A DNA stretch of 51,178 nucleotides, from NCBI GenBank assembly GCA_022824105.1, contig JAJEAZ010000291.1, positions 1 through 51,178 of the forward strand, written 5' to 3'. Source of the DNA: Alphaproteobacteria bacterium. GTDB lineage: Bacteria; Pseudomonadota; Alphaproteobacteria; Bin95. The notes beneath the pieces are model-generated. The model was not told the origin of the DNA and searched no databases. It worked only from the letters and a program-made list of their open reading frames with translations. Each line of letters begins with the position of its first letter. Positions within the stretch are counted from its first letter, which is position 1. Of the stretch, positions 30,074 to 50,149 are shown one piece after another. A program made the translations under genes and the position numbers.

Positions 30074-30114
30074 GGCGATTCTCCTCGGACGGTGCGGTCA
30101 GGGTCGGGAAAGGG

Positions 30115-30778: not shown

Positions 30779-31210
30779 ATGGTCAGCGAAACAATGGCGC
30801 GGCGGGGCACCGCCAGCATGGCGAAGATGATGGGCCTGATGTGCGTCGCGGACTCGAAGCTGGGAAAACTGACGGAAGGCGAGTCGCCGGTCACCAGGAC
30901 GGGGGACTATTCGGATGTCGTGGTCGTGGACGCCGATGGACGGATCATTCCATGGCAGCGCGCGGCCCGCATGGACGCCGCCGAGATGGACCGGACGATG
31001 CGCGAAATCGTGGACAAGCTGTACACATTTCTCTGGAACTTCGAGGAACCGGAGCTTGCGGCGCTACGGGATCATCGGCGAGGCGAGACCTCGGAATGGG
31101 CCAGGCCCACGGAAGATGCCGGGCTGAAGAAGCAGATCGAGGTGCTGGCAAGCGGCATCGTCGAGAGCGAACGGAAGCCGGGAGCGATCGACGGGGCGGC
31201 AAGGGACTGA
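30779..31210 (+). CDS. Hypothetical protein (143 aa)
   Basis: ATG 30779 follows GGGAGA. Translation: ..MAKMMGLMCVADSKLGKLTEGESPVTRTGDYSDVVVVDADGRIIPWQRAARMDAAEMDRTMREIVDKLYTFLWNF.. Confidence 0.55.
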   Translation: MVSETMARRGTASMAKMMGLMCVADSKLGKLTEGESPVTRTGDYSDVVVVDADGRIIPWQRAARMDAAEMDRTMREIVDKLYTFLWNFEEPELAALRDHRRGETSEWARPTEDAGLKKQIEVLASGIVESERKPGAIDGAARD

Positions 31211-31559
31211 CCGAGGCGTCGTGCGGACCCTTCAGGCGTCAATATCCGATAACTGGTGGAGACGCGGCGGGTGGAGGGATTGAATATGGATGGCTTGGGT
31301 GCGATGAGGAAGAGGTCGGTTGGGGCGCATTTTTGAGGGGGCACTCAAACGGGGTCATAGGATTGACGGCCGAGTATGGGCGCGAGTTCTGGCAAGATGG
31401 CCGATAACACGGAAATTGCATTGGGCCTGTCGGGGCAAGGATCGTAAACGGCGAGACGGCGATGCGGGACTCTTCCTGGAAAGCCCATAGGGGGCGAGCG
31501 GTTGTCCTCAATTCACTTGTGGTTGGCAGATTGCGGTCGTCCCCGAGTGTTGCGGACTG

Positions 31560-35221: not shown

Positions 35222-36572
35222 GGCAAAGCGAACGGCGGCGCAGAGGAAGGCGGACACGGCTGCCGAGCGCCGGGTGCATGGTGCCATCCTCGGATACCAG
35301 CCCTATCGCATGAAGCCGGTTCACTTCGCCACGAGTTTTCTTCTTGCATTGACCGGCCGCTATTACCGGCTCGAATACCTGAATAAGGCCTCGGTTCCGA
35401 AGACGGCGCCGAGGGACAAGCGGAGCGTTCAGGACGAATACCCGTCCGATCGGCTTCATTCCCGGCTGGTCGATCTTGAGAAACTGGACCCGTCGGTCGA
35501 CCTGGAGTCGTTCCGCACACTTCGCGCGCACTTGAACGCGGCATATAACAACGACGGTTCGGCCTTGGCAGCCGTCTTCCCGCCCTATTCGACGTTCGGC
35601 GCGGACTACAGTGCCCCCTCGACCAGGTACATCTCGGACCGGTCGAAAAACCACGGTTATTCGGGAAGCTTCGTCGTTTCGGTCCTGGGAGCCAGCGCCG
35701 AGGGACGGAGAGCGCTCGGAAATATCGAACGGCTGCTGGAGCTTCCGCCGCCGCCGCTGGCCGCGTTCGGCGAGCCGCTGCTCGACGACGCGGAGGAGGA
35801 ATGGTGCGATCGGCACGACGAACTCTACGGTGCGATCTTGCCGGGAAGGCTGGCGCGGATTGGATCGGAAATGGAGGACTGCACCGTTGCAATAGGCCAA
35901 CTCGCCGCGAATCTGGAACGGCTGCGATCCAGCTATTCGATGCGCTACATGGTGCTGGGGCTCTGCTGCTGGCTGTTTGCCTACATGATGCGCCAAGGAA
36001 GCGATTCACCGCTGCTGCTGGTCGACGCGCTGCAGGGACGCAATTCCAGGATCCGCGCGCAGAGCCGGGCCACCTACGCGCGGGCGCTGGACCTTTTTTC
36101 GTCAAGCTATGATCGGGCCTTTACAGCGTCCAACGGCTCGGGGATCGAGGAAGACGACTGGAATGTGTTCGCCGGCTCGGCGGAAGCCCGTCAGGTTCTG
36201 GATGAGCACTTTCGGGACCTGGGCGTGCGGATCGGCATCGTGCAACCCCGCTCCGCGGTCGCCAAGCACAAGCATGTCGAGCTACAAGCGGACACGCTTC
36301 GGGTGCTTGCGTACAGCCTGCTTGATGAGGGCCAGGTGCTGACCCTGCCGGCATTTGCAGCGCAACTCAGAAGTGTCTGGTCAATCCTGGTCGGTGCCCA
36401 GGCATCGGACGTCGACGTTCTGCGTGCAAACCGCTTCGGGCCCCTCGATCACGACGAGGATCTGCGACCGAACGCGGATGCGTTCCAAACGCTGCTGGTG
36501 AGACTGGGTCTGGCGGTAGAGCCATCGGACGGGCTGACGCTGGTCGCAATTGACGCGGAAGAGGCGATCTGA
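35214..36572 (+). CDS. DptG (DndG)-like protein, 452 aa
   Basis: ATG 35214 overlaps the upstream stop (ATGGCTAA). The C-terminus reads ..DLGVRIGIVQPRSAVAKHKHVELQADTLRVLAYSLLDEGQVLTLPAFAAQLRSVWSILVG.. The assignment rests mainly on size and order. Confidence 0.55.
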   Translation: MAKAKRTAAQRKADTAAERRVHGAILGYQPYRMKPVHFATSFLLALTGRYYRLEYLNKASVPKTAPRDKRSVQDEYPSDRLHSRLVDLEKLDPSVDLESFRTLRAHLNAAYNNDGSALAAVFPPYSTFGADYSAPSTRYISDRSKNHGYSGSFVVSVLGASAEGRRALGNIERLLELPPPPLAAFGEPLLDDAEEEWCDRHDELYGAILPGRLARIGSEMEDCTVAIGQLAANLERLRSSYSMRYMVLGLCCWLFAYMMRQGSDSPLLLVDALQGRNSRIRAQSRATYARALDLFSSSYDRAFTASNGSGIEEDDWNVFAGSAEARQVLDEHFRDLGVRIGIVQPRSAVAKHKHVELQADTLRVLAYSLLDEGQVLTLPAFAAQLRSVWSILVGAQASDVDVLRANRFGPLDHDEDLRPNADAFQTLLVRLGLAVEPSDGLTLVAIDAEEAI

Positions 36573-36573
36573 G

Positions 36574-39500
36574 ATGGCGCGCACCGCAACATCGCTGGTG
36601 AGCGAGGCCCTGGCGGTCTGGATCCTCTCGCGGCTGGACCAAGAAAACGATTTCGCACGAGAGGGACTTCCGGAGTTCGACATTCCGCGCCTGCTTCAGG
36701 CGCTTTCGGAGGGAGGATTGCCGGCCGGGCGCTTTTCGCTGGCGCTGGTCGGATTCGAGACGACAGAAGAGGAAGTGCGGGCACTCGCGGATGCGAATGG
36801 CCTCGGCGCGCTGGCCGGGGTGACGCTCGATCTCCATGTCGCCACCGAGTGGCGCAACGATCGCGACCGGCATCCGAGGATCGTCGTGCTGGCGCGCGGC
36901 TACAATTCGGGCGTGCATGGCTTGCGCTTCTTCTCCCGCGCCTCTTCGGGAGAGCTCGCGGCCATTCTGTTGGGCTGGGCGGAAAACGCATCCGAATACA
37001 CGGCCACGCCACAGCACCGAGCGTTGCTGGAGAAGCTGGGTCAGGCGCGGGGGCTGGGGTCGGTTCGGTCCCTGGAGGGTGTCGCAGCCTTTCTCGCCGA
37101 ATGGAGCGAGGGACGCGACGAGGCGATCGGCAGGCCGCGCGACGTTCTTCCCGCTCTCGGACTGCTCCGCGATCCGCAATTATTCGAAGCGGACGATCTG
37201 GGCAAGCGGCTCGAACACAATCTGCGTGTAGGGGAACGCGTAACCATCATGTCGCCGGGGGACATCCGGCAGCGGCGTGAGCGCGCGACGCGTTACCGTG
37301 ACGTAGAGACGGCCAAGCTGGTGACCCGGGCACTGGACCGGCTGGAAGCCCATCGGCGCGGCGAGCCCGACGCCGGGCTGACGCTGGCGGATGCGGATCG
37401 TCTCGTGAAACTTCCCGCCGATCCGCCACCGATCCCCGGCTCGGAGGCGGACGAGACGGACGTTTCGGACAAAAACGACAACGAGGGCGGCGGCGTCGAG
37501 GAAGAGGACGAATCCGGACTGCACGAGATGGCGGTGGACGCGCTGCTGGAGGGGCGCGATGAAGACCTCGCGGCCATCGGCGACGCCCTCGAAGCGGCGT
37601 GGGATGAATTCGGGCAGAACGGGGACCGGCTGGCGTCCAGTCAGGAAACCAGCCAGGGGGTGGCCCGGCTCGAAGAGCAGGTCGACCCCAAAGTCATCGA
37701 CTGGGTTACCGCCTTCTGTGGCGTGGATCGCTTCGGCGGGCTCATTGAGACCGACATCGGTGACCTGCCGCAGGCGCTTGCCCGCCATGCCGAGTTCAAT
37801 CCCCTATTCCTGGACCCGGACTCGATCTGGAAGCACAACGGGGTCTCATACTCGATCGAGGCACTGCTCGAAGGGTGGGATGACGTGGATGCTGTCGCAG
37901 AAGCCCGGCCGCGCCCGATAATATCCATGTGGCGTGATTTCGTCGCCGCGCGCGCCTCGCTTGCGGAGAGGGTGGGCCCGCTTCTCATCCATCCTCGCGA
38001 ATGGCTCGACACCCATCCCGAAACGCGGGATGGGTGCGGGCGCTACCTCGCGGTGGCGACCGAGCTCTACAAGGCGATCCAACAGAATTACCGGGCAGTC
38101 TGGGACCAGTCGCCTGAGTGGGCGCAGGCGACGCTGGACGCTCTTCTGTCGCTCGATCTGGTGCAGATCCGGATTACGGGTCTGGACGGTGGATTCAGCG
38201 CCAAGGCGGTGATGCTGCCGCTGCATCCGCTGCATCTGTGGCGCTACCAGCGTTTCGGGGAAATTCTCCGCGATCTCTCGCGTGCAGGCCCCTTATCCGA
38301 GAGCGACAGGAAGGTCGTCATCGAGGAGTTGCGCCGTCCGGAACGCTTTGTCGGCGTCATAAGGACCGGGGCTACGCCGGAAGGGCGGGGGCTCAACCAG
38401 CTGCTTCCGGTCGCCAACAGGATTTGCGGCCTCGCGACGTTCGAGAACCTGCACAACGCGATCAGCAGCGCCGACGGCATGGAGACGCTGGTCCTCGCGC
38501 TCGATCACTTCGTGATGCTCTACCCCAACCATCCCCGCCCGCTCCGGTTGACGCTGGTCAATCCGCCCGAGCCGGCGCGGCTGCTTGAGCGGCTGACGAA
38601 ATTCCTCAATGAACGGCGAAACACCGGCGGACGTCTTCCCGCCCTCGAAGTGACGGTCGTCGCCACGGCCGGGCACCGGGACCGACTGACGGCGACGTCG
38701 ACCCTCGAAGGCGGAGCGCAGGACCTGGTCTATGAGCAAGTCTCCGCCGGCCGGCTCGATCTGCGTGTAGCGAGCGATCCCCATGAAAGCCTCGACCGGC
38801 TGGTGCGGGAGGTGCTGTCGAAACGTCCGCAGCACCTGGTTGCGATCTTCGACGAGTCCGCGATCTCGGTCAGGCGCAGGCGGGTCGAGCGCCTGCTGCC
38901 GATGAGTCCGTTCTGCGTGCGCAACGAGATCATGGTCGATCGGATGCTGGGCGATATCAGCCTGAGTCCGCACCCCGGCGAACCGCCGTTCTCGGATTTC
39001 GTGATGATGATCCACGAGTTCGAACAGGAGCAGCGGGACAGCACGATGGTCGCCTCGGCGGATGCGGACCGGCTGCGCTCGACGATTGACGGACTGCTTC
39101 TAGGAGAGCGAGCGCCGGCACACTGGGTCCTGCTTGCAGATCGCGCTCTGCCGCCGGAAAACGGCATGACGTCCATCCGCCTCCTGCAACGCAGGGAAGG
39201 GCATCGCCAGGTGCTGCTGAGTGCGGCGGATTACGGTCGGCTGTCGACGTTGATGTATGCCGCGTTCAGGAGCTGCAATCTCACGATCACGGATGAGGGG
39301 CTGGGCCACGTTCTGCGGCAGGGCGTGAACCTGGTCGGCGCCGGGCTGCTCGACATGATCAAGAAGCAATCCGGATTGCCGGACAATGCGTCGGTGCTCG
39401 GGTTTGTGGGCATGTTGCTCGCGGCGCGGCGTGTAAGAAGTGAGGATCGGCATGCGCTGGTCGCCTCGGTCGACGGGCCGGTCGCGCGCCTGTGGCTGAA

Positions 39501-41346
39501 GCTGGGCCCGGCGGGCGACGGCAGGCGCTGCGATCTGATTGCGATTCGTCGAGGGTCGGACGGGTCGTTCCGGATCACCTGTATCGAAGTCAAGACGACC
39601 GGGGAACCGGTCCTCTCCGACGAGACGGTGCTGATCGGCCACGCGGCAGACCAGATCGAACGGACGGCGGCGGTAGTGTCGAGCGCGGTTGGGGGGTCGG
39701 GGCCGTTCGCGGCGCCGCGCTCGGAGATGCTGAAGGAGGTCTTGGTGAGGGCGGCATCAAGCCGCTGGGGCGCCGAGCAGGAAGACGTCGCCCAGCGCAG
39801 GATCTGGGGGCCGCTGCTCAAGGACCTGTTCGGGGACGGTCCCGAACCGCCGGTCGTCAGGGTGGACGGTGAGGTCGTCATCGTGAAGCTGCGGTCGACG
39901 GAGCCGGCCGGGGCGAGGCCGCTCGGGGGGAGGGAAATCCCGATCTCGGTCAGGACGATAACCGAGAAGGCGGCGGAGGCGCTGTTCGGCAACGATTTCG
40001 TAACCGAGGCTCCGCTGGAAGATGCGGATCCGGACGGCGATGCTGCGGATGGAGAAGACAGCGGCGGGCGGTGTTCGGCCGGTGAAGAGTCGGCATCGAC
40101 GACCGACCATGCTTCCGGACCAGTTTCGGAACCGCGGGATGGTGGCGGGACCAGGGGAACGGCAACCGAAAGGGGCAAGGATGAGCCGTCCTCGACCGGT
40201 GCCGATGCGGCGGCCAGGAGGGAGCGTCGGGGCGCGACGGAGGCGTCGACGACCTCGGCGGCGGTCAATCGCGCGAATGAAGCGGTTGTAGGAGGAGCGT
40301 TGAACGCGGGATCGGTCTGGCCGCCGCGGGTGAACGCGCTGGGAATGGTCGGACAGTACGAAATCGCCCAGGAACTCGACAATCAGGCGCGCAAGGCCAG
40401 GGGCTGGGGCGAGAGGTTCTTGGACAAGTTGTTCGTTGGGCCTGCCGGCGTTGGCAAGACGACGCTCGCCCGCAGGATTGCAGAACGACTGCTTCAGCTG
40501 GAACCGATGGTGTTCAATGGCGCCGATCTTCGCCGGCCGGATATGATCGTGGAGCGACTGGTGGAGGCCGGCAAGGCGCCGGCGGACGCAGCGGGAGAGG
40601 TCACGGTCGCCCCCTGTCTGATCTTCATAGACGAGGTGCATGCGGTCGCGAGCCCGGTTTCCACGGTGCTGCTCAGCGCGTTAGACGAGCGGCGCAGCAC
40701 CACGATCGGAAATGTGGTCTACAGCTTCGAGGACGTCGTGTTCCTTCTCGCGACCACGGATCCGGGCAGGCTCTCGGAGGCGTTCCAGAGCCGGCCGGAT
40801 AAGACGATCTTGCGCTCCTACACGCTTGAGGAGATGGCCGGGATCGTCTGGCTCCGCTCCGTGGAGACGCTCGGGCAAACGGGTCTCAGTCGCGAGACCT
40901 GTATTGAGATTGCGGCGCGCATGCAGTGCAGCCCACGGCCGAGCGTTAACATTCTCGAGCCGCTGGTCGCGAGCTTCTACGGAACGGCGGAGCACAGGTT
41001 GGGGCGGGTGCCGACCAGGGAAGAAGTGGCGGGCCTGATGAACGCGGCTGCTGTGGCGCGGTGGTTTGAAGATGCGCATGGCATCGACCGCAACGGCCTT
41101 ACCTCGGAACATGTGGAATATCTCAAGCTGCTGCGGACCCGCGGTGCCTCGGCGGAGGAGGAGATTCGCCGTGCGCTCGGAATCTCCAACCGGGCCGACT
41201 TCGTGATCGTGTCGGAATATCTGACTCGTCTCGACCTGATCCGCGTCGGACCCGGCGGGCGGAGCCTTACCTCCGATGGCAGGCGTTATCTCTCCGCGTC
41301 GTCCCCACCCGACCTCCGTGACCGGATATCGCGTCGCATGAACTGA
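36574..41346 (+). CDS. Large DptH (DndH)-like protein with an internal PD-(D/E)xK-like motif and a C-terminal RuvB-like AAA+ module, 1590 aa
   Basis: ATG 36574 lies 2 nt after the upstream stop. Nuclease-like motif: CDLIAIRRGSDGSFRITCIEVKTT (39529-39600). An acidic/Gly-rich linker follows. AAA+ motifs are FVGPAGVGKTTLARR (40438-40464), LIFIDEVHAV (40618-40641) and FLLATTDPGRLSEAFQSRPD, followed by a winged-helix-like tail. Confidence 0.6.
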   Translation: MARTATSLVSEALAVWILSRLDQENDFAREGLPEFDIPRLLQALSEGGLPAGRFSLALVGFETTEEEVRALADANGLGALAGVTLDLHVATEWRNDRDRHPRIVVLARGYNSGVHGLRFFSRASSGELAAILLGWAENASEYTATPQHRALLEKLGQARGLGSVRSLEGVAAFLAEWSEGRDEAIGRPRDVLPALGLLRDPQLFEADDLGKRLEHNLRVGERVTIMSPGDIRQRRERATRYRDVETAKLVTRALDRLEAHRRGEPDAGLTLADADRLVKLPADPPPIPGSEADETDVSDKNDNEGGGVEEEDESGLHEMAVDALLEGRDEDLAAIGDALEAAWDEFGQNGDRLASSQETSQGVARLEEQVDPKVIDWVTAFCGVDRFGGLIETDIGDLPQALARHAEFNPLFLDPDSIWKHNGVSYSIEALLEGWDDVDAVAEARPRPIISMWRDFVAARASLAERVGPLLIHPREWLDTHPETRDGCGRYLAVATELYKAIQQNYRAVWDQSPEWAQATLDALLSLDLVQIRITGLDGGFSAKAVMLPLHPLHLWRYQRFGEILRDLSRAGPLSESDRKVVIEELRRPERFVGVIRTGATPEGRGLNQLLPVANRICGLATFENLHNAISSADGMETLVLALDHFVMLYPNHPRPLRLTLVNPPEPARLLERLTKFLNERRNTGGRLPALEVTVVATAGHRDRLTATSTLEGGAQDLVYEQVSAGRLDLRVASDPHESLDRLVREVLSKRPQHLVAIFDESAISVRRRRVERLLPMSPFCVRNEIMVDRMLGDISLSPHPGEPPFSDFVMMIHEFEQEQRDSTMVASADADRLRSTIDGLLLGERAPAHWVLLADRALPPENGMTSIRLLQRREGHRQVLLSAADYGRLSTLMYAAFRSCNLTITDEGLGHVLRQGVNLVGAGLLDMIKKQSGLPDNASVLGFVGMLLAARRVRSEDRHALVASVDGPVARLWLKLGPAGDGRRCDLIAIRRGSDGSFRITCIEVKTTGEPVLSDETVLIGHAADQIERTAAVVSSAVGGSGPFAAPRSEMLKEVLVRAASSRWGAEQEDVAQRRIWGPLLKDLFGDGPEPPVVRVDGEVVIVKLRSTEPAGARPLGGREIPISVRTITEKAAEALFGNDFVTEAPLEDADPDGDAADGEDSGGRCSAGEESASTTDHASGPVSEPRDGGGTRGTATERGKDEPSSTGADAAARRERRGATEASTTSAAVNRANEAVVGGALNAGSVWPPRVNALGMVGQYEIAQELDNQARKARGWGERFLDKLFVGPAGVGKTTLARRIAERLLQLEPMVFNGADLRRPDMIVERLVEAGKAPADAAGEVTVAPCLIFIDEVHAVASPVSTVLLSALDERRSTTIGNVVYSFEDVVFLLATTDPGRLSEAFQSRPDKTILRSYTLEEMAGIVWLRSVETLGQTGLSRETCIEIAARMQCSPRPSVNILEPLVASFYGTAEHRLGRVPTREEVAGLMNAAAVARWFEDAHGIDRNGLTSEHVEYLKLLRTRGASAEEEIRRALGISNRADFVIVSEYLTRLDLIRVGPGGRSLTSDGRRYLSASSPPDLRDRISRRMN

Positions 41347-42020
41347 AGTGTGTCCGGCGCGGGGCATTGGCGACGGGCCGGCGGAGGAGGCTACTTCCCG
41401 GTCGGCGTGCTGGATACACGCCGTGGTAACGAACCTGGTGAGTGGGGCTCGCATGTGCTGAAAGGCGCCCGAAACGGCGACTGGAAGACCTTCGCGGGAA
41501 TGCCGAAGGTCGTGCTGGAGGGCCGGGTGCTGGAGACCATTTCCATCATGGAGTATGTCTGGGAGGAGGACCAACACGGTTCTGGCGAACGAGAAAACGC
41601 TACGAGTGCAAAGGTAAGCGGACGGATGAGATGGCGGCGGAGAGGATAGTGGCTCGTATGCACTGGGCTTGGCACACCGCGCTTCCGCGGCCGGATGGCT
41701 GGCGGCATCGACCGAAGGGGTCGGGCGGCGTCTGGATGTGGAAACCGGCTGGTTACGGCACGATGACGGCGACCGCGCTGCGCGGATCGCTATACTGGTG
41801 GGAATGGAGCCGCGCCTTGAGGTTGATGCCGGCTCCTCGGCCCGCGTAGACGGTTGGTTGCATATGAGGCAAGAAGGTCGTGGAGAAACAGACGCGCCAC
41901 AATAAATGGACAACGGTATGGGCGTAGAGTTGGTTGACCCGCTATGCTGAAGAATAGAGAACGGAGATTTGTGGTATATGGGTCCCGCAACTAACGAAAT
42001 TAGTTCAATGGGAGCATTGT

Positions 42021-42485
42021 ATGTCTATTTTGGAGAACTCGATATCACATTTTGATCGCACTTTGCTCTATGGGCTGTGCTCGGAAAGCAGAGTCCATAC
42101 TGGGATTATGGTGTTTTACACAGGACCGAAGCTACCCGACTTCTGTTCGGCAATGGTTCGTGACCCGCTGCCAAAATGCGGTCATATAGTTGATCGTGGA
42201 TTTGTATCGAAACTTCAAGCGGCGCTACGAGCTAATCCATCGGTTCACGATGGAGCGATAATGTGCGGGCAGGAGTCGGCCAAGAACAAGTACAGGGTAA
42301 CAGGCTGGTCGTACCGGCTATATCCGCCTGCTTTTGAAGGGACATTGTTTCCGAACAAGGGATCGGCATTTAACAGTGGTCTGGCCATGTCTCGCGTAGA
42401 ATCCGTGGATAGAGTGTTGTTCTGGTCATCGGGGAGAGGCTGGTGCTTTGAACATGGTTGCATCTTGGGACCGGTACAAGGATGA
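42021..42485 (+). CDS. DAC-fold (DisA_N / diadenylate-cyclase-like) small protein with a divergent active site
   Basis: 154 aa, with RBS GGGAGC. It aligns by eye to DAC domains: TGIMVF (GALI), SVHDGAIMC (LHDGAxI), SYRLYPP (yLPLS), NKGSAFNSGLAMS (in place of GTRHRAAxGIS) and VLFWSSGRGWCFEHG (in place of ViVSEETGxIS..G). The gene is AT-richer than its surroundings. Confidence 0.55.
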   Translation: MSILENSISHFDRTLLYGLCSESRVHTGIMVFYTGPKLPDFCSAMVRDPLPKCGHIVDRGFVSKLQAALRANPSVHDGAIMCGQESAKNKYRVTGWSYRLYPPAFEGTLFPNKGSAFNSGLAMSRVESVDRVLFWSSGRGWCFEHGCILGPVQG

Positions 42486-43102
42486 AGCGTCCCTTTGTGA
42501 TTCTCGTAGTCCTGGTAGCTGCGGTGACGTGGGCCGTGATGGCTGCTGTGAAGGGATTGCCAGACACACTATGGGAGGCCATGCTTCCCTTCGGTAGCTC
42601 AATTGGCGTGGCAATGGGGTTGTCGTGGATGTACCAGAAAAAGGTATGGCACTGGTGGCCGTTGCAGGAGCTGTTGGCGAAGACGCCGGACTTAAGGGGG
42701 GCGTGGAAGGTAACAATTCGTCCTGCACGGATTGATCCGAGCGAAAACAGGAAAATGAAACCGGTGGAAGGATACGCACAAATAGATCAGACAGCATCGT
42801 CACTTTGTATGCGGCTTTTTACAGATGATTCTCGTTCCGAAACGTTTGCGTATTCAATAGATGAGATTGAGGGGGAGTTCCGTTTGACGGTAGCTTATGA
42901 GAACAGGCCGAGGATGGAGGACAGGGCGAGAAGCGGAACGAGCCATCAGGGTAGCGCTATTTACAGGTTTAGAGAATATAGACCGGAAGGGCTGAATGGC
43001 GAGTATTGGACGGAACTGAAAAACGTGGGCGAGATTGAACTCAGGAACAGAAGGCAGCAGGGGATAAGTTCGTTCGAGGATGGCAAGCAGGTTTTTTCTT
43101 GA
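42482..43102 (+). CDS. Two-TM + beta-barrel effector, Cap15 / S-2TMbeta-like
   Basis: 206 aa. ATG 42482 overlaps the upstream TGA (ATGA). TM1 is PFVILVVLVAAVTWAVMAAV and TM2 is MLPFGSSIGVAMGLSWMY. Then LRGAWKVTI..GYAQIDQTASSLCMRLFTDDSRSETF..FRLTVAYENRP..SHQGSAIYRF..LNGEYWT..GEIELRNR matches the G.W..I / I.QT.S / Y.N.P / H.G / L.G.Y / G.I.L pattern of Cap15-type effectors. Confidence 0.7.
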   Translation: MKRPFVILVVLVAAVTWAVMAAVKGLPDTLWEAMLPFGSSIGVAMGLSWMYQKKVWHWWPLQELLAKTPDLRGAWKVTIRPARIDPSENRKMKPVEGYAQIDQTASSLCMRLFTDDSRSETFAYSIDEIEGEFRLTVAYENRPRMEDRARSGTSHQGSAIYRFREYRPEGLNGEYWTELKNVGEIELRNRRQQGISSFEDGKQVFS

Positions 43103-43199
43103 ATGATGTCGCTATGTTCGCGATGCGACCGTCGCGTTCGGCTAGGGTCATTCAGCTAGCGGGATAGGAAAAAGGCAAGATTCGGTACGTCGACGCAGT

Positions 43200-43730
43200 C
43201 TACTCCAACAAGTCGCCGAAGCTGTCGAGATTAAGGCGAAAGCGATGCCGATCAGACCATTCGCGCTTTATGCGATCGGCTTCCTCAACGCCAAGCAAGT
43301 TCTGGCGGATCATCGATACGACCAGATCCTGCGTTGTCAGGATGTGGAGCGATGGAGCGAAACGACGCGCGAGCCGGTTGGCGACACGGTCATCGATGGC
43401 CAACGAATATCCACGCTGGACTGCGACGGCGATCGCGGAACACTCGCCTGCGCCCAGGCGTCCGGTGGCTGACAGGGAGGCGAAGAGACGGAGTTCTTCA
43501 GCGGCGGCAACGGGAATAAGGGTAAGGGTCCCGGAATCGAGCGCGGAAGCGAAGCGTCGCTGTTGATCGGGATATCGGTCCGACACTTCGTTGGCAACAT
43601 GGTCGGTGGCGAGGAAGGCATGGGAATGGCCGGCGATCAGATCGATCCTGTCGATACGCAGGAAGTTGATCAGGACCGAGGCGTCGGTGACGATGATCGC
43701 CGGCCGATCAGGTTCTGGGGAAACGCTCAC
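43200..43730 (-). CDS. PIN-domain protein
   Basis: 176 aa: AIIVTDASVLINFLRIDRIDLI..ATDHVANEV..GECSAIAVAVQRGYSLAIDDRVA (acidic PIN residues). The GTG start overlaps the upstream stop (GTGA). Confidence 0.8.
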   Translation of the reverse strand: MSVSPEPDRPAIIVTDASVLINFLRIDRIDLIAGHSHAFLATDHVANEVSDRYPDQQRRFASALDSGTLTLIPVAAAEELRLFASLSATGRLGAGECSAIAVAVQRGYSLAIDDRVANRLARRFAPSLHILTTQDLVVSMIRQNLLGVEEADRIKREWSDRHRFRLNLDSFGDLLE

Positions 43731-44965
43731 CTAGCCCGAGCCACTTCGGCAAGGCTAAGTAGAATGTCGCGGTCGATCCTCAGCATCTTGCTCATTTCGA
43801 GGACGCGTCCGCGCGAAATTTCCTCGCGGCGGTAAGCCTCGATGGCGAGATGGACAATTTCACTTCGGAGTTCGCGATCCCAGTATCTCCGCCTTTCAGG
43901 CTCGCCGACCTCGCTGAACATACTGAGAGCCTTCAGGTATTTGCGGCCGAAGTTTTCTTGATCCAGGAGTCCCCGACATTCCCTGTCGGAGACGTATCTG
44001 AGGCTCTTGAGGCGGTAGGACGCGGCCTGATAGCTCACTCCGAAGTGATGGGCGAGCATGGCGTTGTCTTTGTAGGTAATGCGTTGTGAGCGCGCAGGAG
44101 GGCGCTGTGCCGCCTCGATGTGGCCGCCGCTTGCCGCGTCGAATATGGCGTGATCGAGGCGGCTTGGCAGACCCTTATCGAGAGTTCGCAGGAAGTCACG
44201 AAAGCCGCCCCTGGGCATCAGAAAGGCGGCGGCAAAGGCGTTCGCGCGCTTTTCGACCAGTTGGGAAGAGTTATCGGTGCTGGAGATCGTAACGTCGCGA
44301 TCGCGGTCCAGTAAAGCGTGCGCGTATTCGTGCGCATAGGAGAAGCGCTTTCGGCCCCTGGGATGGGTCGAGTTGACAAGTATTGCGAGGCCGATACTGG
44401 AATGACGGAGAAACAGACCGGACATTCCATCCGGTAGCGCGACCCCGGATGCCCAAATGCCTTGAGAGGCGATGAGTTCGGAGACATCGGCTATGGGGGC
44501 GTTCCCGATGCCGAGGCGCCGCCGCTCTTGTTCCGCAGCCTGCTCGCCGTGGGAGATAGCTTCGCCTGGAGAACGTGGCATATGCGGCTCGTATCTCGGC
44601 GGGCCGGAGCGGGGCTCAGCGCCGAGCAGACGCTCGAGCATCACGCCTTCCCGGCAAAGATGGACGCAGCGCGCCACCTGCTCCGGGGTGGCCGGATCTT
44701 GCTCAAGGCCGGGGGCCGCGCGATGCAAGGCGACGAGAACGTCGTCGTCATCGCCTTCGGCTGGGTCCTGAAGGAAATCGGCGACGGGGCGAAGGTAGAG
44801 CTCTGACAGTGCTGTAAGTTCCAGGGTCGAGACTGACCGGTTGCCCGCTTCCAGCTGGGTGATGGCCGTTCGAGCAAGGCCCAATGCCTGGGCGACCTCC
44901 TGCTGACTGAGGCCGCGCGCTACGCGGGCCGTGCGCAATCGGCGTCCCAAGGTCTCCGCATCCAT
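43727..44965 (-). CDS. Fused XRE HTH + ImmA/IrrE metallopeptidase regulator (CapH-CapP-like fusion)
   Basis: 412 aa. The HTH is LGRRLRTARVARGLSQQEVAQALGLARTAITQLEAGNRSVS. The peptidase HEXXH is FSYAHEYAHALLD, followed by ..EKRANAFAAAFLMP. RBS GGGAGGA. It is divergent from the CBASS operon. Confidence 0.9.
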   Translation of the reverse strand: MDAETLGRRLRTARVARGLSQQEVAQALGLARTAITQLEAGNRSVSTLELTALSELYLRPVADFLQDPAEGDDDDVLVALHRAAPGLEQDPATPEQVARCVHLCREGVMLERLLGAEPRSGPPRYEPHMPRSPGEAISHGEQAAEQERRRLGIGNAPIADVSELIASQGIWASGVALPDGMSGLFLRHSSIGLAILVNSTHPRGRKRFSYAHEYAHALLDRDRDVTISSTDNSSQLVEKRANAFAAAFLMPRGGFRDFLRTLDKGLPSRLDHAIFDAASGGHIEAAQRPPARSQRITYKDNAMLAHHFGVSYQAASYRLKSLRYVSDRECRGLLDQENFGRKYLKALSMFSEVGEPERRRYWDRELRSEIVHLAIEAYRREEISRGRVLEMSKMLRIDRDILLSLAEVARAR

Positions 44966-45037
44966 GGTTCGTTCCTCCCTCGGCAGAAACCGCTACAAGC
45001 GGCGTGAGGATGTCACTCTCCTATATCGAACGCCAAA

Positions 45038-45058
45038 TGTCAAAATCAAACATTGACA
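45038..45058. promoter_or_regulatory. Inverted repeat TGTCAA-N9-TTGACA in the divergent CBASS/regulator promoter region
   Basis: It lies in an AT-rich 190-bp intergenic region. TTGACA also equals the -35 consensus. The arms are only 6 bp, so support is weak. Confidence 0.3.
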
Positions 45059-45155
45059 GATCGATGATCGTACATATGATTCGTGCGGTGTGGCCTGAGG
45101 GTGCGTACGGCGCGGTTCGGGTGCGGATGTCTCAAGCGGGACGCAGACAACGACA

Positions 45156-46295
45156 ATGAGCGAAGCCCCTCTACCCCCTCTCAGGGCTTTGAGCCTGGAC
45201 GGCGGCGGTATGCGCGGCATCTACACGGCGGCCTTTCTTGACCGTCTGCTGTCGCAGCACGCCAAGCGCACCGGTCAGGGGCGGCTGGATCTGGGCCGCG
45301 GAATCGACCTGATTTGCGGGACGAGCACGGGTGCGATCGTCGCTTGCGCCGTGGCGGTCGGTTGTCCGCTCGATCGCGTCGTGGATCTCTATCGAAAACA
45401 CGGGGCGGCGATATTTCCTCATCGCATCACCGGGTATCGAAGCATTGCATACCGCGCCTTCAGTGGGCGGCGCTTCGTACGGGCGGGAGACCAGGCTCTT
45501 CGATCCGCTTTGACCGAGGTGTTGGGGGACATCACGGTGGCTGATGTCTTCGACAAGCGCGGCATTTCCCTATCGGTGCCGGCAGTGGACATGTCGACGC
45601 ATCGGTCCTGGGTCTTCAAACGGACGCCGGTCAGCGGTGTGCGCGACGACGATTTCTCGTTGGTTGATGTTTGCATGGCTTCGAGCGCTGCACCGATCTT
45701 TCGATCGTTGGCGGACGTTGGTGACCCGAACAGTGATCGAGGCGCCCGCAAGGTCTTCGCGGATGGAGGTCTCTGGGCAAACAACCCCGTGCTGGTGGCC
45801 CTGACTGACGCAATGGCGATGGCTGAAGAGGATCAGCCGATCGAAATATTCTCGTTGGGGACATGCCCCCGGCCCGTAGGTGAACACATTCGAGGCGACG
45901 CCGTTCACAGGTCGCTCCTTGAGTGGCGGTTCGGCGCCGACGTGGGGCCCCTTTCGATCTCGGCACAGGAATTCGCCTACGACAATATCGCGCGGCTCTT
46001 GGGAAACGAGCTTTCCAAACAGGGGAGAAGCGTGCAGGCGATCAGGTTTCCCCGGAAGGATGTGCCGGCAAGCATGATGCCGTTCCTGGCGCTCGACGAT
46101 ACGCGGGAGGAGGCAATGGACCGCTTGGTTGAACAGGCAGGCTCGGATGCCGATTTGACGAAGAGCGCCTGTGACGATCCGGGATGCCGGGATGGCAGCA
46201 CGATCAAGTCGCTTCTTGAAAGCCTTCCGCCGGCCGACCCAAGCCGGCTGTTGTACAACCCGGGCCTGCAAGATGGCACGCCAAGTGAACCTTGA
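45156..46295 (+). CDS. capV: Patatin-like phospholipase, CBASS effector CapV-like
   Basis: 379 aa. Motifs: LSLDGGGMRG (oxyanion hole), CGTSTGAI (GxSxG) and FADGGLWANNP (catalytic Asp). Confidence 0.9.
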   Translation: MSEAPLPPLRALSLDGGGMRGIYTAAFLDRLLSQHAKRTGQGRLDLGRGIDLICGTSTGAIVACAVAVGCPLDRVVDLYRKHGAAIFPHRITGYRSIAYRAFSGRRFVRAGDQALRSALTEVLGDITVADVFDKRGISLSVPAVDMSTHRSWVFKRTPVSGVRDDDFSLVDVCMASSAAPIFRSLADVGDPNSDRGARKVFADGGLWANNPVLVALTDAMAMAEEDQPIEIFSLGTCPRPVGEHIRGDAVHRSLLEWRFGADVGPLSISAQEFAYDNIARLLGNELSKQGRSVQAIRFPRKDVPASMMPFLALDDTREEAMDRLVEQAGSDADLTKSACDDPGCRDGSTIKSLLESLPPADPSRLLYNPGLQDGTPSEP

Positions 46296-46309
46296 ACTGG
46301 AGAGAACAG

Positions 46310-47356
46310 ATGATTGATTGCGGTGCGGACGTTAAGGCGTTTCATGACGAGAAGGTGACGTTGCCTGGTTCCGAGCAGGACAAGATGAAGGACCGGCGAA
46401 ACTCGAATCGCGACAGGTTGAAGAGGAACCTCGAAAAGGACGAGAAGCCTACGCCGTACGAGCATGTCTCCCAGGGAAGCTATCGAATGAAGACGATGCT
46501 TCGGGACGAGAACAACGACTACGACATCGACGACGGAGCGTATTTCAAAAAGGGCGTTCTTGTGGGGGATCGCGGAGCGGAGATGTCGTCGCTCGACGCG
46601 CGCAAAATGGTCCGCGACGCCATGGATGACGGGAGCTTCAAGACGCCACCGGAGGTCAAGGCGAACTGCGTCCGCATCCACTATTCCGAAGGGTACCACG
46701 TGGACATTCCGGTCTACCGCCAAATCGTCGATGAAGATGCTGACGAAACGTATTATGAACTCGCGGCCAGTTCCGGATGGAAGCGTTCGGACGCGCGAGA
46801 TGTGACCAAGTGGTACGAAGAGAAGCGCACGGGCACGTCCGACGCCAATCAATTCCGGCGCTTGAATCGGTATCTCAAGAAGCACGCGAGAAGCCGGGCG
46901 AGCTGGAAGTCCCGCAATCTTAGTGGATTCGCGATCACGGCACTGCTTGCCGAGACCTTCGTTCTCAGCCCGGATCGGGATGACATCGCGTTGTATCGCA
47001 CGATGGAGGCGATGAAGAGACGTCTGGACGGCAATACCGTGATCGACCATCCGGTTACGCCGAACGAAACCATCACGACCGACGACCCGGACGCAAAGGC
47101 GCGTTTTTTCAGGGACAAGTTGAAGGAAGCGCTGGATCACCTCGCCCCGGTATACGCGGACGACTGCGACAGAGAATCGGCACTGAAGTGCTGGGACAGG
47201 GTGTTCGACACGAACTTCTTCTCCAAACGATACGAGGACGAGAAGGAGAAGAGTGCATCAATGTCTGCCCCGGCGATCGGTTCTGCTGCGATACTTGGGT
47301 CGACGGCGGCAGCTGCCTCTTCGGTGAGCGCGAGAGGCGGCGGACGGCATGCGTGA
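46310..47356 (+). CDS. cGAS/DncV-like nucleotidyltransferase (CD-NTase)
   Basis: 348 aa from MIDCGADVKAFHDEKV, with GGAGAG 5 nt upstream. Motifs: QGSYRMKTMLR..DYDIDDGAYF (GS...DxD) and GYHVDIPVY (third Asp). The C-terminal tail is Ala/Ser/Gly-rich and ends ..RGGGRHA. Confidence 0.85.
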   Translation: MIDCGADVKAFHDEKVTLPGSEQDKMKDRRNSNRDRLKRNLEKDEKPTPYEHVSQGSYRMKTMLRDENNDYDIDDGAYFKKGVLVGDRGAEMSSLDARKMVRDAMDDGSFKTPPEVKANCVRIHYSEGYHVDIPVYRQIVDEDADETYYELAASSGWKRSDARDVTKWYEEKRTGTSDANQFRRLNRYLKKHARSRASWKSRNLSGFAITALLAETFVLSPDRDDIALYRTMEAMKRRLDGNTVIDHPVTPNETITTDDPDAKARFFRDKLKEALDHLAPVYADDCDRESALKCWDRVFDTNFFSKRYEDEKEKSASMSAPAIGSAAILGSTAAAASSVSARGGGRHA

Positions 47357-49184
47357 TGCGACATTCTCTGGCGAGGGAATGGTGGAATACGAGCGTGCGA
47401 TACTTGAGGTAACGCAATGTCTTCGGGAGCACACGGGGGGTACGGCGACCCGCATTGAGCATGGGCCGATAGCGGCGGCCTACAAAACGAGAAATTTCGC
47501 CGATGGATGGCGGATCCGGGTTGCGTTCTCCGACGACAAGACGCGGAACATCGACCTGCTCGTCTCGGCCTTTTTCCCGCATAGCGCGCCCCGAGCGGCG
47601 CTGGTCGACCGTCCGGAGTACCTGACTTGGCCGCATATCGAGCATGACGGCGTTCTGTGTCTTCTTCGCAATTCCAGCGAGATTGATCCGACGGCACCCG
47701 GTGAGGTGGCGCTTGCAATTCTGAACCGGGCCGTACGACTGGTGGAAGAACTCATCGAAGGTTCGATTGTCGAGCGGGACTTCAAGCAGGAGTTCCTCAC
47801 CTACTGGTTCTACGCCAGTCAGGAGTCCGGCAAGAACGTAGTGATTCTGTGTGAACCGGTGGGCCCGTCCCGCGTGCTCAGGCGCTTCACATGGGAGGGA
47901 AAGGTTTACGTTGGCGAGAATTTGTCATCGCTTCAGCAGTGGATAGACCGGAGGTTTGGAGCGCGAACGGCGGCAAAGGCCGCGAAGACCGCGAAGCCGG
48001 CGGCGTTCATTTGGTTGCAGGAGCCGCCCCTACCGAAAAAGTATCCCGAGCGCGGATCCGACATCCTGGCGCTGGCGTCTCGCCAGGGCGAAGAGGCGGT
48101 CGAGATTCTCGCCGAAGCGGCGTCAGCCGGTGATGACGAATGTCTGGTGCTTCTCGGGGCAGAGGGGCGTGGCGGCGCGGGCGTGGTCGCCGTCCGCATT
48201 GACCGCAACCGTAGTCAGAGGACGGGAAACCGGCGAGCCAGGGACAAAATGCACCGCGGCTTTCGGGCCGGTCACCTTCCGCCGGCAGTCGCCATGGAAC
48301 GGACCTATGGGCGCAACGAGGTCCGACGTGCTGAGGTCGAAAGGGCTGATGCGGCATGGGTACATGGGAGAGGACAAGAGGCCCGCAGTCGCATCCTGCT
48401 CGAGAAGTCCGTCACGGTTTTCGGCTGCGGCTCGGTCGGGTCGTTCGTGACCCAAAGTCTGGCGCGAGCAGGTGTCGGCACGCTGCGCTTGGTAGATTTC
48501 GATAAGTTGAGCTGGGCGAATGTGGGGCGCCATACGCTCGGCGCAGATTCTGTTGGGCGGAACAAGGCAGAGGCGCTGGCGGAGAGATTGCAGCGTGAGT
48601 TTCCGCATCTTCAGTTTGAAGGGCAGAACTCGATGATCGAAGCCGCTCTGCTTGCCGACAGAGCGCGGCTGCTCCGCAGTGACCTGATTGTGTGCTTGAC
48701 GGGAAATTGGGTAGCCGAGTCTGGGTTGAACGACTGGCACGTGAAATCCGGTCTCGACAATGCGATTCTGTACGGTTGGACGGAGGACCATGCCGTTGCC
48801 GGCTCAGCGGTCGTAATCACGCCCAAAGGTAGGTGCCTGGCGTGCGGAATAGGTCGCACAGGGACGCCGCTGTTGACGGCGGTGGATTGGCCGGATGGAC
48901 GCGAGGCGCATACGGAGCCTTCCTGCGCGGATCATTACCAGCCGTACGGAGCGATCGAACTCTCTTACATCACCACGATGATTGCGAACACGGCAATCGA
49001 CGAGCTTCTCAACGCATCGGAGACGTCCTATCGAAGAATTTGGGTTTCTGGAAGGCAGGCCGAATATGGGGGAACGATCAGCAAGGCGTTCACGGAGGCT
49101 CTGGGTGGGACAGAAATGAAAAACGGGATTATAACGCTCTCCTGGGGGAACGAGACATGTGCGCTGTGCAAGGAGCGCGGATGA
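47349..49184 (+). CDS. cap2: Cap2-like E2-E1 fusion
   Basis: 611 aa. The E2 part is WPHIEHDGVLCLL (Cys104 codon at 47658-47660). The E1 part is VTVFGCGSVGSFV..LRLVDFDKLSWANVGRH.. and ..KGRCLACGI. ATG 47349 overlaps the CD-NTase stop (ATGCGTGA). Confidence 0.9.
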   Translation: MRDATFSGEGMVEYERAILEVTQCLREHTGGTATRIEHGPIAAAYKTRNFADGWRIRVAFSDDKTRNIDLLVSAFFPHSAPRAALVDRPEYLTWPHIEHDGVLCLLRNSSEIDPTAPGEVALAILNRAVRLVEELIEGSIVERDFKQEFLTYWFYASQESGKNVVILCEPVGPSRVLRRFTWEGKVYVGENLSSLQQWIDRRFGARTAAKAAKTAKPAAFIWLQEPPLPKKYPERGSDILALASRQGEEAVEILAEAASAGDDECLVLLGAEGRGGAGVVAVRIDRNRSQRTGNRRARDKMHRGFRAGHLPPAVAMERTYGRNEVRRAEVERADAAWVHGRGQEARSRILLEKSVTVFGCGSVGSFVTQSLARAGVGTLRLVDFDKLSWANVGRHTLGADSVGRNKAEALAERLQREFPHLQFEGQNSMIEAALLADRARLLRSDLIVCLTGNWVAESGLNDWHVKSGLDNAILYGWTEDHAVAGSAVVITPKGRCLACGIGRTGTPLLTAVDWPDGREAHTEPSCADHYQPYGAIELSYITTMIANTAIDELLNASETSYRRIWVSGRQAEYGGTISKAFTEALGGTEMKNGIITLSWGNETCALCKERG

Positions 49185-49283
49185 GAAGCAGCGCAAAATT
49201 GAACCGAGCTTGGTCGACAGCACAAGGTTGTGGGGAAATGTACTTGATTGACTGGAATCGCACCTGTCGCATTGGAGAGGCCA

Positions 49284-49439
49284 ATGGCGATACCTGAATC
49301 TCAATTGGATACCTGGTCTCATCAAGGTTCGGTCACGCGATCCAGCAAGACTTACGGAACCGTCAGAAGTGCACTATTGGCGGGAGGCACGGCATACGCG
49401 AACAAGGAGACAAAGGTGTTCCTCCCTGTTAATCGGTAA
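49284..49439 (+). pseudogene. 5' fragment of a second SMODS/CD-NTase-type nucleotidyltransferase gene
   Basis: RBS GGAGAGG is present. MAIPESQLDTWSHQGSVTRSSKTYGTVRSALLAGGTAYANKETKVFL matches the usual N-terminus (..SQL.tWs.qG......Y..i...L.......vfLqGSY.N.TNi). From about 49425 it reads PVNR, then stop, and AT-rich DNA begins. Confidence 0.55.
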
Positions 49440-49451
49440 CTGGGCCCGCAA

Positions 49452-50063
49452 ATGCTCGTCTCAATTCTCGTTCCATTAACGATGTTGATATGTTTACCAC
49501 TTTGGTTTAGGTTGCACTACGAGTGGATCGGAAGACGCGCATATTGGGTTTTTGGCTATCTTATTCTGCATTCACTAATCGCATTTCCTATAGATTTATT
49601 GGCGCATTTTATGGACATTGGCCAACCTTCTGCTCCGATCGCATTTTATCCTTTGGTAATTTTGAACGTATTCCTTGGTCCATTACTAATTACCCTAGCT
49701 ACTATTTATGAAGTAGTTTTATTTTGGATAAATGGTGGCGAAGAAACATGCTATATTGTGTCCGGGTTGATTTCATGGTCTCGGAAAATTGTTACTGATG
49801 AGTACGAAACGTATCCGGTGCTATACCCGTTGTTTGTAACACTAGCCCCATCTATTGGCGCAACATTGGAAATCCTATGGGGGGTACTAGTTTTCTGTTG
49901 GAGGATAATTGCAGGATCGCTAGCCGGAAGTATTGTTCCGCCCTCGCAAATACCAACCTTACAAATACCAACAAAGGAGTATTTGTCGGTTCATCTACCC
50001 CGTTTAGTAGGATTTATACCGCCCCTTGTAATCGCGGCAATAATAATTTCTTGTTCATTGTGA
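49452..50063 (+). CDS. Polytopic membrane protein, AT-rich foreign-looking gene
   Basis: 203 aa with 5-6 hydrophobic helices (VSILVPLTMLICLPLWF, WVFGYLILHSLIAFPIDLL, IAFYPLVILNVFLGPLLITLATIYEVVLFWI ...). Its composition is markedly AT-richer than everything else in the window. No family recognised. Confidence 0.6.
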   Translation: MLVSILVPLTMLICLPLWFRLHYEWIGRRAYWVFGYLILHSLIAFPIDLLAHFMDIGQPSAPIAFYPLVILNVFLGPLLITLATIYEVVLFWINGGEETCYIVSGLISWSRKIVTDEYETYPVLYPLFVTLAPSIGATLEILWGVLVFCWRIIAGSLAGSIVPPSQIPTLQIPTKEYLSVHLPRLVGFIPPLVIAAIIISCSL

Positions 50064-50149
50064 GGCTCTCACCCATGGCCCTGGAAGCAAATCGGAGATG
50101 GAGGTCATGCGGCCGGAGACTTGTCAGTGCGGCGCGCCGGGCAGCAGTG

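Follow-up and report, generated by a model that had tools for sequence, protein, structure and literature searches.

Two overlapping genes in a 51,178-nucleotide stretch of alphaproteobacterial DNA (contig JAJEAZ010000291.1; "the window" below means this whole stretch) encode a Cap15-type membrane effector, gene 2, and directly upstream of it a small protein, gene 1, whose structural model has the fold of a diadenylate cyclase (DAC). The two genes are a true pair, found side by side in every related locus in which both flanks of gene 1 could be seen. Alignments place gene 1 in a divergent, DAC-derived family that retains the catalytic Asp-Gly of these enzymes and carries alanine in place of an arginine that is essential in characterised minimal DACs. 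By analogy with the PanDA and Panoptoo systems, the pair may be an anti-phage guard module, a reading to which we assign a probability of about 45%.

Folds of the paired proteins

Gene 2 is a Cap15/S-2TMbeta-type effector. It scores 49.1 bits against Pfam Cap15_CD_rec (PF18153; cut-off 31.2, E 8.8e-13), and it matches over its full length the PADLOC models for two-transmembrane (2TM) effectors of CBASS, the anti-phage signalling system based on cyclic oligonucleotides (best E 2.6e-45). The AlphaFold model, with a predicted local distance difference test score (pLDDT) of 73, consists of long N-terminal helices at residues 3-24 and 30-55 followed by an eight-stranded barrel, and the top three Foldseek matches in the PDB are the receptor domain of Yersinia aleksiciae Cap15 (7n35/7n34; E 1.5e-4, TM-score 0.79 on the target). 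A preliminary description of this DNA, made from its letters, had read gene 2 as Cap15-like with two transmembrane helices and a beta domain, and Pfam, PADLOC, AlphaFold and Foldseek all bear this out. A homologue search recovered only close relatives of gene 2, at identities of at least 57%, and tblastn of gene 2 against phages gave no matches. When plasmids were searched by tblastn with gene 2, B. subtilis CdaA or an A. vitis DAC domain, only CBASS Cap15 operons, housekeeping DACs or members of the gene-1 family were found.

With the cut-off relaxed to E <= 10, gene 1 still finds no family in Pfam, PADLOC or NCBIfam. When PDB sequences were searched with gene 1, with its family profile or with the DAC domain of the larger island protein DS-2C (described below), the outcome was no match or chance matches only. 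The AlphaFold model, made from an input alignment of 43 homologues, has a pLDDT of 92.3 and a predicted TM-score (pTM) of 0.88. Foldseek aligned it with the PDB in 44 matches at E <= 1e-3 (best E 1.4e-5, TM-score about 0.6), and the 50 matches listed are all DAC-fold proteins (DacM, CdaA, CdaM, DisA and the uncharacterised 2fb5); a Foldseek search of viral structures found nothing. By its model, then, gene 1 has the DAC fold, as the preliminary description had proposed. The model and the structural matches describe a bare catalytic-fold domain that carries no sensor or regulatory domain.

When 1.84 billion cluster representatives were searched with a HMMER profile, 180 proteins were recovered at E <= 1e-3, 163 of them at E <= 1e-10, and all of the 150 matches listed look like members of the gene-1 family. 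The large DAC families were not reached by this search; gene 1 belongs to a compact family of its own. PF02457 (DAC) was the sole recurrent weak Pfam match, sub-threshold in 8 of 44 members with a best E of 0.011. When the 156-sequence family alignment was compared by hhalign with a small DAC alignment (T. maritima DisA, abbreviated TmDisA and checked against 3c1y, two mycobacterial DisA and three CdaA), the two aligned over 123 columns with an E of 2.1e-5. Gene 1 thus fails to be recognised as DisA_N/DAC by sequence, and only hhalign detects the link; judged as a member of the canonical diadenylate cyclases (PF02457), it has the DGA motif, reads AFN for RHR and has no Pfam match. Almost all hosts of the family are Alphaproteobacteria; among the loci surveyed below, one is from a Bryobacterales metagenome-assembled genome (MAG). 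Plasmid copies occur in Bradyrhizobium and Agrobacterium vitis, where they are annotated "hypothetical protein" or were not called as genes.

Pairing and gene order

The preliminary description had proposed, as a check, a survey of the co-occurrence of gene-1 homologues with 2TM-beta genes. Our survey covered 31 loci: the window, 4 loci from exact-protein look-ups, 24 from a scan of species-representative genomes and 2 plasmid copies. They were annotated with iterated local hidden Markov models, checked by Pfam and PADLOC, over flanks of up to 10 kb. Gene 1 adjoins a Cap15-like gene in 30 of the 30 loci with both sides visible. The paired effectors are diverse, with identities of 14-97%, and their identity with CBASS Cap15 genes that occur in the same loci does not exceed 27%. 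Pairwise identities of gene 1 and gene 2 are correlated (Pearson r = 0.65, Spearman 0.38). We conclude that gene 1 and gene 2 are a true pair.

Two gene orders occur. The genes are co-directional in six loci, including the window, and in all six they overlap by 4 nucleotides (ATGA in five, GTGA in one). In head-to-head loci (L002-L004, L008-L012, L014-L027, L031 and L032, both plasmid copies among them) the spacing of the starts ranges from overlapping to 130 bp apart, so that the co-directional, overlapping form of the window is the minority. Both genes of the window are real genes, as shown by the 180 cluster representatives of gene 1 and by the overlap kept in co-directional relatives. The overlap of the two reading frames at ATGA, reported in the preliminary description, was verified from the list of open reading frames and from the sequence; this ATG is favoured as the start of gene 2 over an upstream TTG at 42458 by the length of most homologues, 206 amino acids. 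A scan for promoters and terminators around the gene pair gave no signal over background.

The pair lies in a patch that is AT-richer than both flanks, an early impression that the GC profile upholds: GC is 0.49-0.54 over positions 41800-43200, compared with 0.63-0.70 upstream and about 0.60 downstream, so that the patch is about 12 GC points under its flanks. The same tendency is seen in related loci, where the GC of the pair is under that of the flanks in 27 of 28 cases, by a mean of 7 points.

Active site of gene 1

The motifs of gene 1 are HDGA at residues 76-79, GSAFN at G114-N118 and WSSGRG at 135-140. Every profile alignment places gene 1 on TmDisA in the same register: D77-G78-A79 on D75-G76-A77, L100 on L94, G114 on G106, S115 on T107, A116 on R108, F117 on H109, N118 on R110, S119 on T111 and S136 on S127. 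The position of A116 is the same against the TmDisA/CdaA profile and against the DS-2C profile, and it is pinned because the DS-2C proteins of two related loci, L022 and L027, read SRGSRFNSA in alignment with NKGSAFNSG of gene 1. WSSGRG falls on VSRRRN/VSEETG. The preliminary description had placed HDGA at codons from 42246, GSAFN where GTRHR is expected and WSSGRG where VSEETG is expected, and all three placements stand.

Conservation was counted over 156 family sequences. D77 is present in 155 of 156, G78 in 156 of 156, G114 in 155 of 155, S115 in 145 of 156 and S119 in 153 of 156. Two further elements are peculiar to the family. One is the GWSxRL strand, in which W96 (149/156), S97 (151/156) and R99 (155/156) precede the L100 that aligns with the adenine-contacting L94 of TmDisA; the other is a 9-residue M-x-R-x-P-x-P insertion containing R47 (141/156), which has no counterpart in canonical DACs.

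The catalytic residues of PanS, the minimal DAC of PanDA and Panoptoo, are an Asp of DG[AF] (EcPanS D68, RePanS D71) and an Arg of GGR/RHR (EcPanS R105, RePanS R108), according to the preprints on those systems, which equate T107/R108/T111 of TmDisA with G104/R105/A108 of EcPanS (PMC13640721; 10.64898/2026.08.10.743927). The equivalence of A116 with the PanS arginine rests on these published residue correspondences and on the DAC and DS-2C profiles, not on a PanS sequence. Activity is lost in EcPanS D68A and R105A and in DGF and GGR mutants of VcPanS (PMC13640721; 10.64898/2026.08.10.743927). So aligned, the gene-1 family retains the Asp-Gly of catalysis and the positions that contact the nucleoside, and is without the arginine that is essential in PanS. 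Homologues of DS-2C-type proteins that carry Y/F-N at the H-R positions of RHR are active c-di-AMP synthases, as one preprint reports. The changes at F117 and N118 are compatible with activity because DS-2C proteins of the active type carry Y/F-N there, like gene 1; and because F117/N118 match the DS-2C type in this way, only the change of Arg to Ala is treated as critical. If gene 1 is a synthase, a remodelled phosphate site would be needed, and R99 and R47 are candidates that could rebuild one. K/R113 was considered as a relocated catalytic arginine and rejected; it is basic in 91% of sequences and Met in 7, and DS-2C has both arginines.

Comparison with known systems

The preliminary description knew of no defence system that pairs a DAC with a 2TM-beta protein. 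That statement is outdated, since systems that join a minimal DAC to a 2TM-beta effector appear in two preprints dated 11 August 2026, named Panoptoo by Ragucci, Haley and Kranzusch (10.64898/2026.08.10.743927) and PanDA by Nabhani and colleagues (PMC13640721). Both report biochemistry, structures and phage assays (10.64898/2026.08.10.743927; PMC13640721). PanS, a minimal DAC of about 150 amino acids, constitutively synthesises 3'3'-cUA or 3'3'-c-di-AMP, and its partner, the 2TM-beta effector PanE, is toxic by itself, is repressed by the nucleotide and is released by the phage sponge Acb4 (10.64898/2026.08.10.743927; PMC13640721). About half of the systems have, within 10 genes, a CBASS that possesses ubiquitin-like machinery and whose effector is a patatin or a 2TM-beta protein, and their GC is about 10% under that of the host genome (PMC13640721; 10.64898/2026.08.10.743927). 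DAC domains have thus entered anti-phage immunity as constitutive makers of a decoy signal (PMC13640721; 10.64898/2026.08.10.743927).

The gene pair resembles these systems in several respects. A DAC-fold protein of about 150 amino acids, with no regulatory domain, stands beside a Cap15-like 2TM beta-barrel effector; the hosts are Pseudomonadota; the GC is under that of the host; the Asp-Gly of DGA is kept; and the pair is usually beside a CBASS with patatin or 2TM-beta effectors and Cap2/Cap3. It differs in that no member of the gene-1 family is significant against Pfam DisA_N/DAC, whereas the PanS proteins were gathered either through DisA_N signatures together with homology to a protein from Klebsiella, or in PSI-BLAST/MMseqs searches iterated from known DAC families (preprints). 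It differs also in the M-x-R-x-P-x-P insertion and GWSxRL strand, and in that the catalytic arginine (EcPanS R105, RePanS R108, GGR of VcPanS) is Ala in the gene-1 family, by the published residues. What is new here is therefore narrower than was first supposed: a divergent DAC-derived family without the catalytic arginine, set apart from PanS by the published descriptions. R. etli PanS was considered as a possible member of this family and rejected; its published numbering (D71, S90, G107, R108) does not fit the Rhizobium members.

The closest motif match to gene 1 is found in DS-2C/CdaG proteins (DACNG-DACNH-DAC), which belong to DS-2 CBASS variants. Those of L022 and L027 read MDGALLID and SRGSRFNSA where gene 1 reads HDGAIM and NKGSAFNSG, and share an island with gene 1, lying directly downstream of it. 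The match of SRGSRFNSA to NKGSAFNSG hints that the gene-1 family is derived from a DAC lineage of the DS-2C type. In contrast to gene 1, DS-2C proteins are about 570 amino acids long, have two N-terminal sensor domains and keep the catalytic arginine; their tested homologues make 3'3'-c-di-AMP, and their partners are a CD-NTase-like protein and a patatin, with no dedicated 2TM-beta gene.

Panoptes (the minimal CRISPR polymerase OptS with OptE) is likewise a two-gene unit beside CBASS that joins a small nucleotide synthase to a 2TM-beta effector, and its logic is inhibitory decoy signalling; the gene pair is likened to it by proposed mechanism. The fold of OptS is Cas10-palm/GGDEF-like and its signal is 2'3'-c-di-AMP, whereas gene 1 has, by its model, a DAC fold. 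CBASS type I with Cap15 has the same effector family (PF18153), and Y. aleksiciae Cap15 is the best structural match to gene 2, but no CD-NTase is part of the gene 1-gene 2 unit and, as noted above, the paired effectors are distant from the CBASS Cap15 of the same locus. With the housekeeping DACs (DisA, CdaA, CdaS, DacM) gene 1 has in common the predicted fold, the DGA motif and a G-[ST] helix N-cap; unlike them it has no regulatory or membrane domain, and AFN stands where they have RHR. The hosts of gene 1, mostly Alphaproteobacteria, are outside the phyla that a preprint names as typical users of c-di-AMP.

Proposed mechanism and alternatives

Inverse signalling, by analogy with PanS and PanE, is the most likely logic for a guard module of this kind. 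Gene 2 would be a membrane-permeabilising 2TM beta-barrel effector whose barrel serves as a cyclic-dinucleotide receptor, and gene 1 a minimal DAC-fold protein that controls the effector through a nucleotide ligand. Gene 1 would constitutively supply a cyclic dinucleotide that holds gene 2 shut; a phage sponge or nuclease directed against CBASS-type signals would strip the ligand; the freed effector would kill the infected cell; and the module would thereby guard the neighbouring CBASS. Both folds, a pairing without exception, coupled translation, the adjacency to CBASS and the low GC are shown here; which ligand is used, whether it represses or activates, and the synthesis of a nucleotide, which gene 1 would have to achieve despite the change of Arg to Ala, are borrowed from PanS and PanE. 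The preliminary description had proposed a DAC-derived protein as the partner of the effector; pairing and fold agree with it, and its two suggestions for the role of gene 1, an altered cyclase or a nucleotide sensor, both remain live.

Several observations weigh against a PanDA/Panoptoo-type module. Cyclase activity is lost in EcPanS R105A and in GGR mutants of VcPanS (PMC13640721; 10.64898/2026.08.10.743927), and position 116 of the gene-1 family is Ala in 142 sequences, Gly in 10 and Arg in 1 of the 156. The basic residues of DisA that contact the triphosphate (H109, R110, R128 and R130) are likewise not conserved in the family. K/R113 is no obvious substitute for the arginine, since it is basic in only 91% of sequences and an Arg of DS-2C (SRGSR) already corresponds to it. 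The genes are head-to-head in 22 of 28 loci (79%), rather than operonic as in PanDA and Panoptoo, and form a two-gene operon only in the window and five other loci. Lastly, CBASS or DS-2 adjacency is 77-86% here compared with about 50% reported for PanDA, which could mean dependence on a signal made by the neighbour.

Such dependence is the essence of the first alternative, somewhat unlikely in our judgement, in which gene 1 is a catalytically dead DAC-fold nucleotide binder that buffers or senses the signal of a neighbouring CD-NTase or DS-2C. Gene 1 would then fix the level at which the effector responds, or act as its gate, perhaps by touching it directly, and the pair would be an add-on module of CBASS and not a self-contained guard. 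Loss of the catalytic arginine and of the H109, R110, R128 and R130 equivalents, with ribose and base contacts kept, is what this explanation leads one to expect, and PanS holds its product tightly enough to survive purification, so that a DAC dimer can serve as a binder (PMC13640721; 10.64898/2026.08.10.743927). In 24 of 31 loci the fetched flanks contain a cyclase, either CD-NTase or DS-2C, which often abuts the pair, as in L013 (CD-NTase, gene 1 and Cap15 co-directional), L004, L008, L009, L021 and L026; in L022, L027 and L032 the gene directly downstream of gene 1 encodes DS-2C or another DAC protein. Among loci without a cyclase, three are truncated by a contig end or too short, insertion sequence (IS) elements interrupt one, and two have only a patatin stump. 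Against the dead binder stands the fact that the lost arginine also contacts the product phosphodiester in RePanS, so that its retention would be expected in a pure binder, while the invariant D77 and two family-specific invariant arginines resemble an active site. In addition, no cyclase is found in the fetched flanks of L020 and L007, the pairs of L005 and L006 are intact without CBASS, and a ligand-repressed effector without a synthase of its own would make the pair toxic.

Two alphaproteobacterial MAGs, L005 and L006, bear on whether the pair depends on CBASS. These loci, 96% and 87% identical to the window in nucleotides, have only a 3.5-kb block in common with it (window 41860-45555, L005:9837-13344, L006:10001-13517), containing gene 1, gene 2, a PIN-like gene, a gene that joins helix-turn-helix (HTH) and M78 peptidase domains, and the first 200-400 bp of the patatin. 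Past the block, inside the patatin, the sequence turns to AcrB and other unrelated genes in L005 and to an IS transposase in L006. The pairs are intact with CBASS gone, and the pair therefore outlives CBASS, which fits a self-sufficient module. Gene 1, gene 2, the PIN-like gene and the HTH-M78 gene may move as a unit.

An explanation in which the sign of the signal is positive, as in CBASS, is improbable. Gene 1 would here be an infection-activated cyclase that replaces the CD-NTase, and its product would switch gene 2 on. Cap15 is activated by its ligand in CBASS, and the best profile matches of gene 2 are the CBASS 2TM effector models; but gene 1 is a bare fold without a sensor or regulatory domain, the characterised minimal DAC plus 2TM-beta systems are constitutive and inhibitory (PMC13640721; 10.64898/2026.08.10.743927), and the doubt raised by the catalytic arginine applies equally.

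More improbable again is a toxin-antitoxin-like pair, independent of nucleotides, in which the DAC-fold protein neutralises a membrane toxin by protein contact. Tight pairing with overlapping or divergent starts is typical of toxin-antitoxin genes, and the catalytic arginine is lost, but conservation in gene 1 is strongest at residues of the DAC nucleotide pocket and gene 2 keeps the cyclic-dinucleotide receptor barrel of Cap15 above the Pfam threshold. The preliminary description's own alternative, that the CBASS 3.2 kb downstream uses gene 2 as a further effector and gene 1 is an unrelated neighbour, draws on the presence of CBASS in the window and in most related loci and is very improbable, being contradicted by the Cap15-like gene beside gene 1 in all 30 evaluable loci across effector identities of 14-97% and two gene orders, by the ATGA coupling, by the patatin effector that the window CBASS already has, by the two opposite-strand genes that separate it from the pair, and by survival of the pair after CBASS loss in L005 and L006.

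A broader proposition, which we hold tentatively and as somewhat short of an even chance, is that the gene-1 family is a DAC domain that gave up the canonical, arginine-dependent cyclase chemistry, as a pseudoenzyme or as a rebuilt synthase. As a nucleotide-binding pseudoenzyme it could gate the 2TM-beta pore-former and act as a host-encoded buffer or sensor of the CBASS or DS-2 signal, which, if true, would give 2TM-beta effectors a kind of regulation that has so far not been described for them. As a synthase with a phosphate site rebuilt from R99 and R47, it would make a signal other than 3'3'-c-di-AMP or 3'3'-cUA. An active gene 1 would show a DAC working without that arginine and may add a new signal; an inactive one would be a pseudo-cyclase controlling a pore-former, a different wiring of 2TM-beta effectors to CBASS. 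The family is in either case a second DAC-derived one, of about 180 clusters and mainly alphaproteobacterial, with the same partner and CBASS neighbourhood as PanDA/Panoptoo. PanE-like effectors also adjoin proteins of unknown function (Panoptoo, 10.64898/2026.08.10.743927), and it is plausible that the gene-1 family is the identity of some of these partners.

Genomic neighbourhood

The usual neighbours of the pair in related loci are patatin/CD-NTase/Cap2(/Cap3) operons and Cap15/CD-NTase operons. In the window, a type II CBASS follows on the same strand (Table 1), with PADLOC matches for the phospholipase (3.7e-94), the cyclase (9e-136) and the E1-E2 protein (2.9e-204), and with Pfam matches as well; the distance of 3.2 kb from gene 2 to the CD-NTase, given in the preliminary description, is correct. 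A tblastn search of the window with the JAB protein of L001 gave no convincing match to Cap3/JAB, and none beside the CBASS. Cap3 is present in several related loci.

Table 1. Features of the gene pair and the adjacent genes in the window
Feature	Coordinates	Strand	Basis and remarks
GGGAG, Shine-Dalgarno-like site	42010..42014	+	6 nt 5' of the gene 1 ATG; read from sequence
Gene 1, 154-aa single-domain protein of predicted DAC fold, PanS-like	42021..42485	+	ATG-start open reading frame, AlphaFold (AF2), Foldseek, hhalign
H76-D77-G78-A79 codons, DGA motif of DACs	42246..42257	+	aligns with TmDisA D75-G76-A77
W96-S97-Y98-R99-L100 codons, family-specific GWSxRL strand	42306..42320	+	register from hhalign
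N112-K-G-S-A-F-N-S119 codons, counterpart of GTRHR/GGR, Ala116 at catalytic Arg position	42354..42377	+	
ATGA, gene 2 start overlapping gene 1 stop (translational coupling)	42482..42485	+	read from sequence
Gene 2, 206-aa Cap15/PanE-like 2TM beta-barrel effector	42482..43102	+	Pfam, PADLOC, Foldseek
Gene 2, two N-terminal hydrophobic helices, residues 3-24 and 30-55	42488..42646	+	AF2 secondary structure, hydrophobic sequence
Gene 2, cyclic-dinucleotide receptor beta-barrel, residues 67-188	42680..43045	+	Pfam Cap15_CD_rec envelope; eight model strands
PIN-like 176-aa protein (PADLOC candidate PDC-S70)	43200..43730	-	PADLOC E 4.2e-11; accompanies the pair in L005 and L006
HTH and M78 (ImmA/IrrE) peptidase fusion, CapH/CapP- or RmrA-like	43727..44965	-	divergent from CBASS operon
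Type II CBASS	45156..49184	+	patatin 45156-46295, CD-NTase 46292-47356, Cap2 (E1-E2) 47349-49184

The two genes between the pair and the CBASS are both divergent from the latter, and the PIN-like gene is co-transcribed after the HTH-M78 gene. The HTH-M78 product matches Pfam Peptidase_M78 and HTH_3 and, in PADLOC, RmrA (2.7e-26), capP (3e-18) and capH (9e-8); it is probably a damage-responsive regulator of CBASS.

Proteins of the DS-2C/CdaG type (DACNG+DACNH+DAC, 571-574 amino acids) lie directly downstream of the gene-1 homologue at L022:10387-12111 (+) and L027:10384-12108 (+), and at L004:1458-3173 (-) another is encoded on the strand opposite to gene 1, about 3 kb upstream of it. On the A. 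vitis plasmid, a 426-amino-acid protein with DGA, GGR and SQDG motifs and a weak Pfam DAC match is encoded directly downstream (L032:7431-8711, +).

Right after Cap2 in the window, an N-terminal stump is all that is left of a second CD-NTase, a 63-amino-acid open reading frame at 49248-49439 (+) whose closest resemblance is to the DS-2-type cyclase of L004 (E 1.9e-10). An AT-rich stretch at 49400-50100 (GC about 0.40) contains a 203-amino-acid, multi-helix membrane open reading frame that matches no family, and a tyrosine integrase lies beyond it at 50150-51157 (-).

Upstream of the pair is a run of large co-directional genes at 24993-41346 (+). It includes a 1801-amino-acid protein without a family match, a DruA-like gene at 31560-33620 (PADLOC E 2e-127), an SspF-like AAA gene at 33617-35221, a 452-amino-acid protein without a match and a 1598-amino-acid protein with a C-terminal AAA+/RuvB-like module. 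The run has the look of a defence cluster that fits no known class, which makes the region as a whole a defence island. The sole tRNA gene of the window, a tRNA-Ser (GGA) at 16587-16677 (+), lies inside a long minus-strand open reading frame that is probably spurious.

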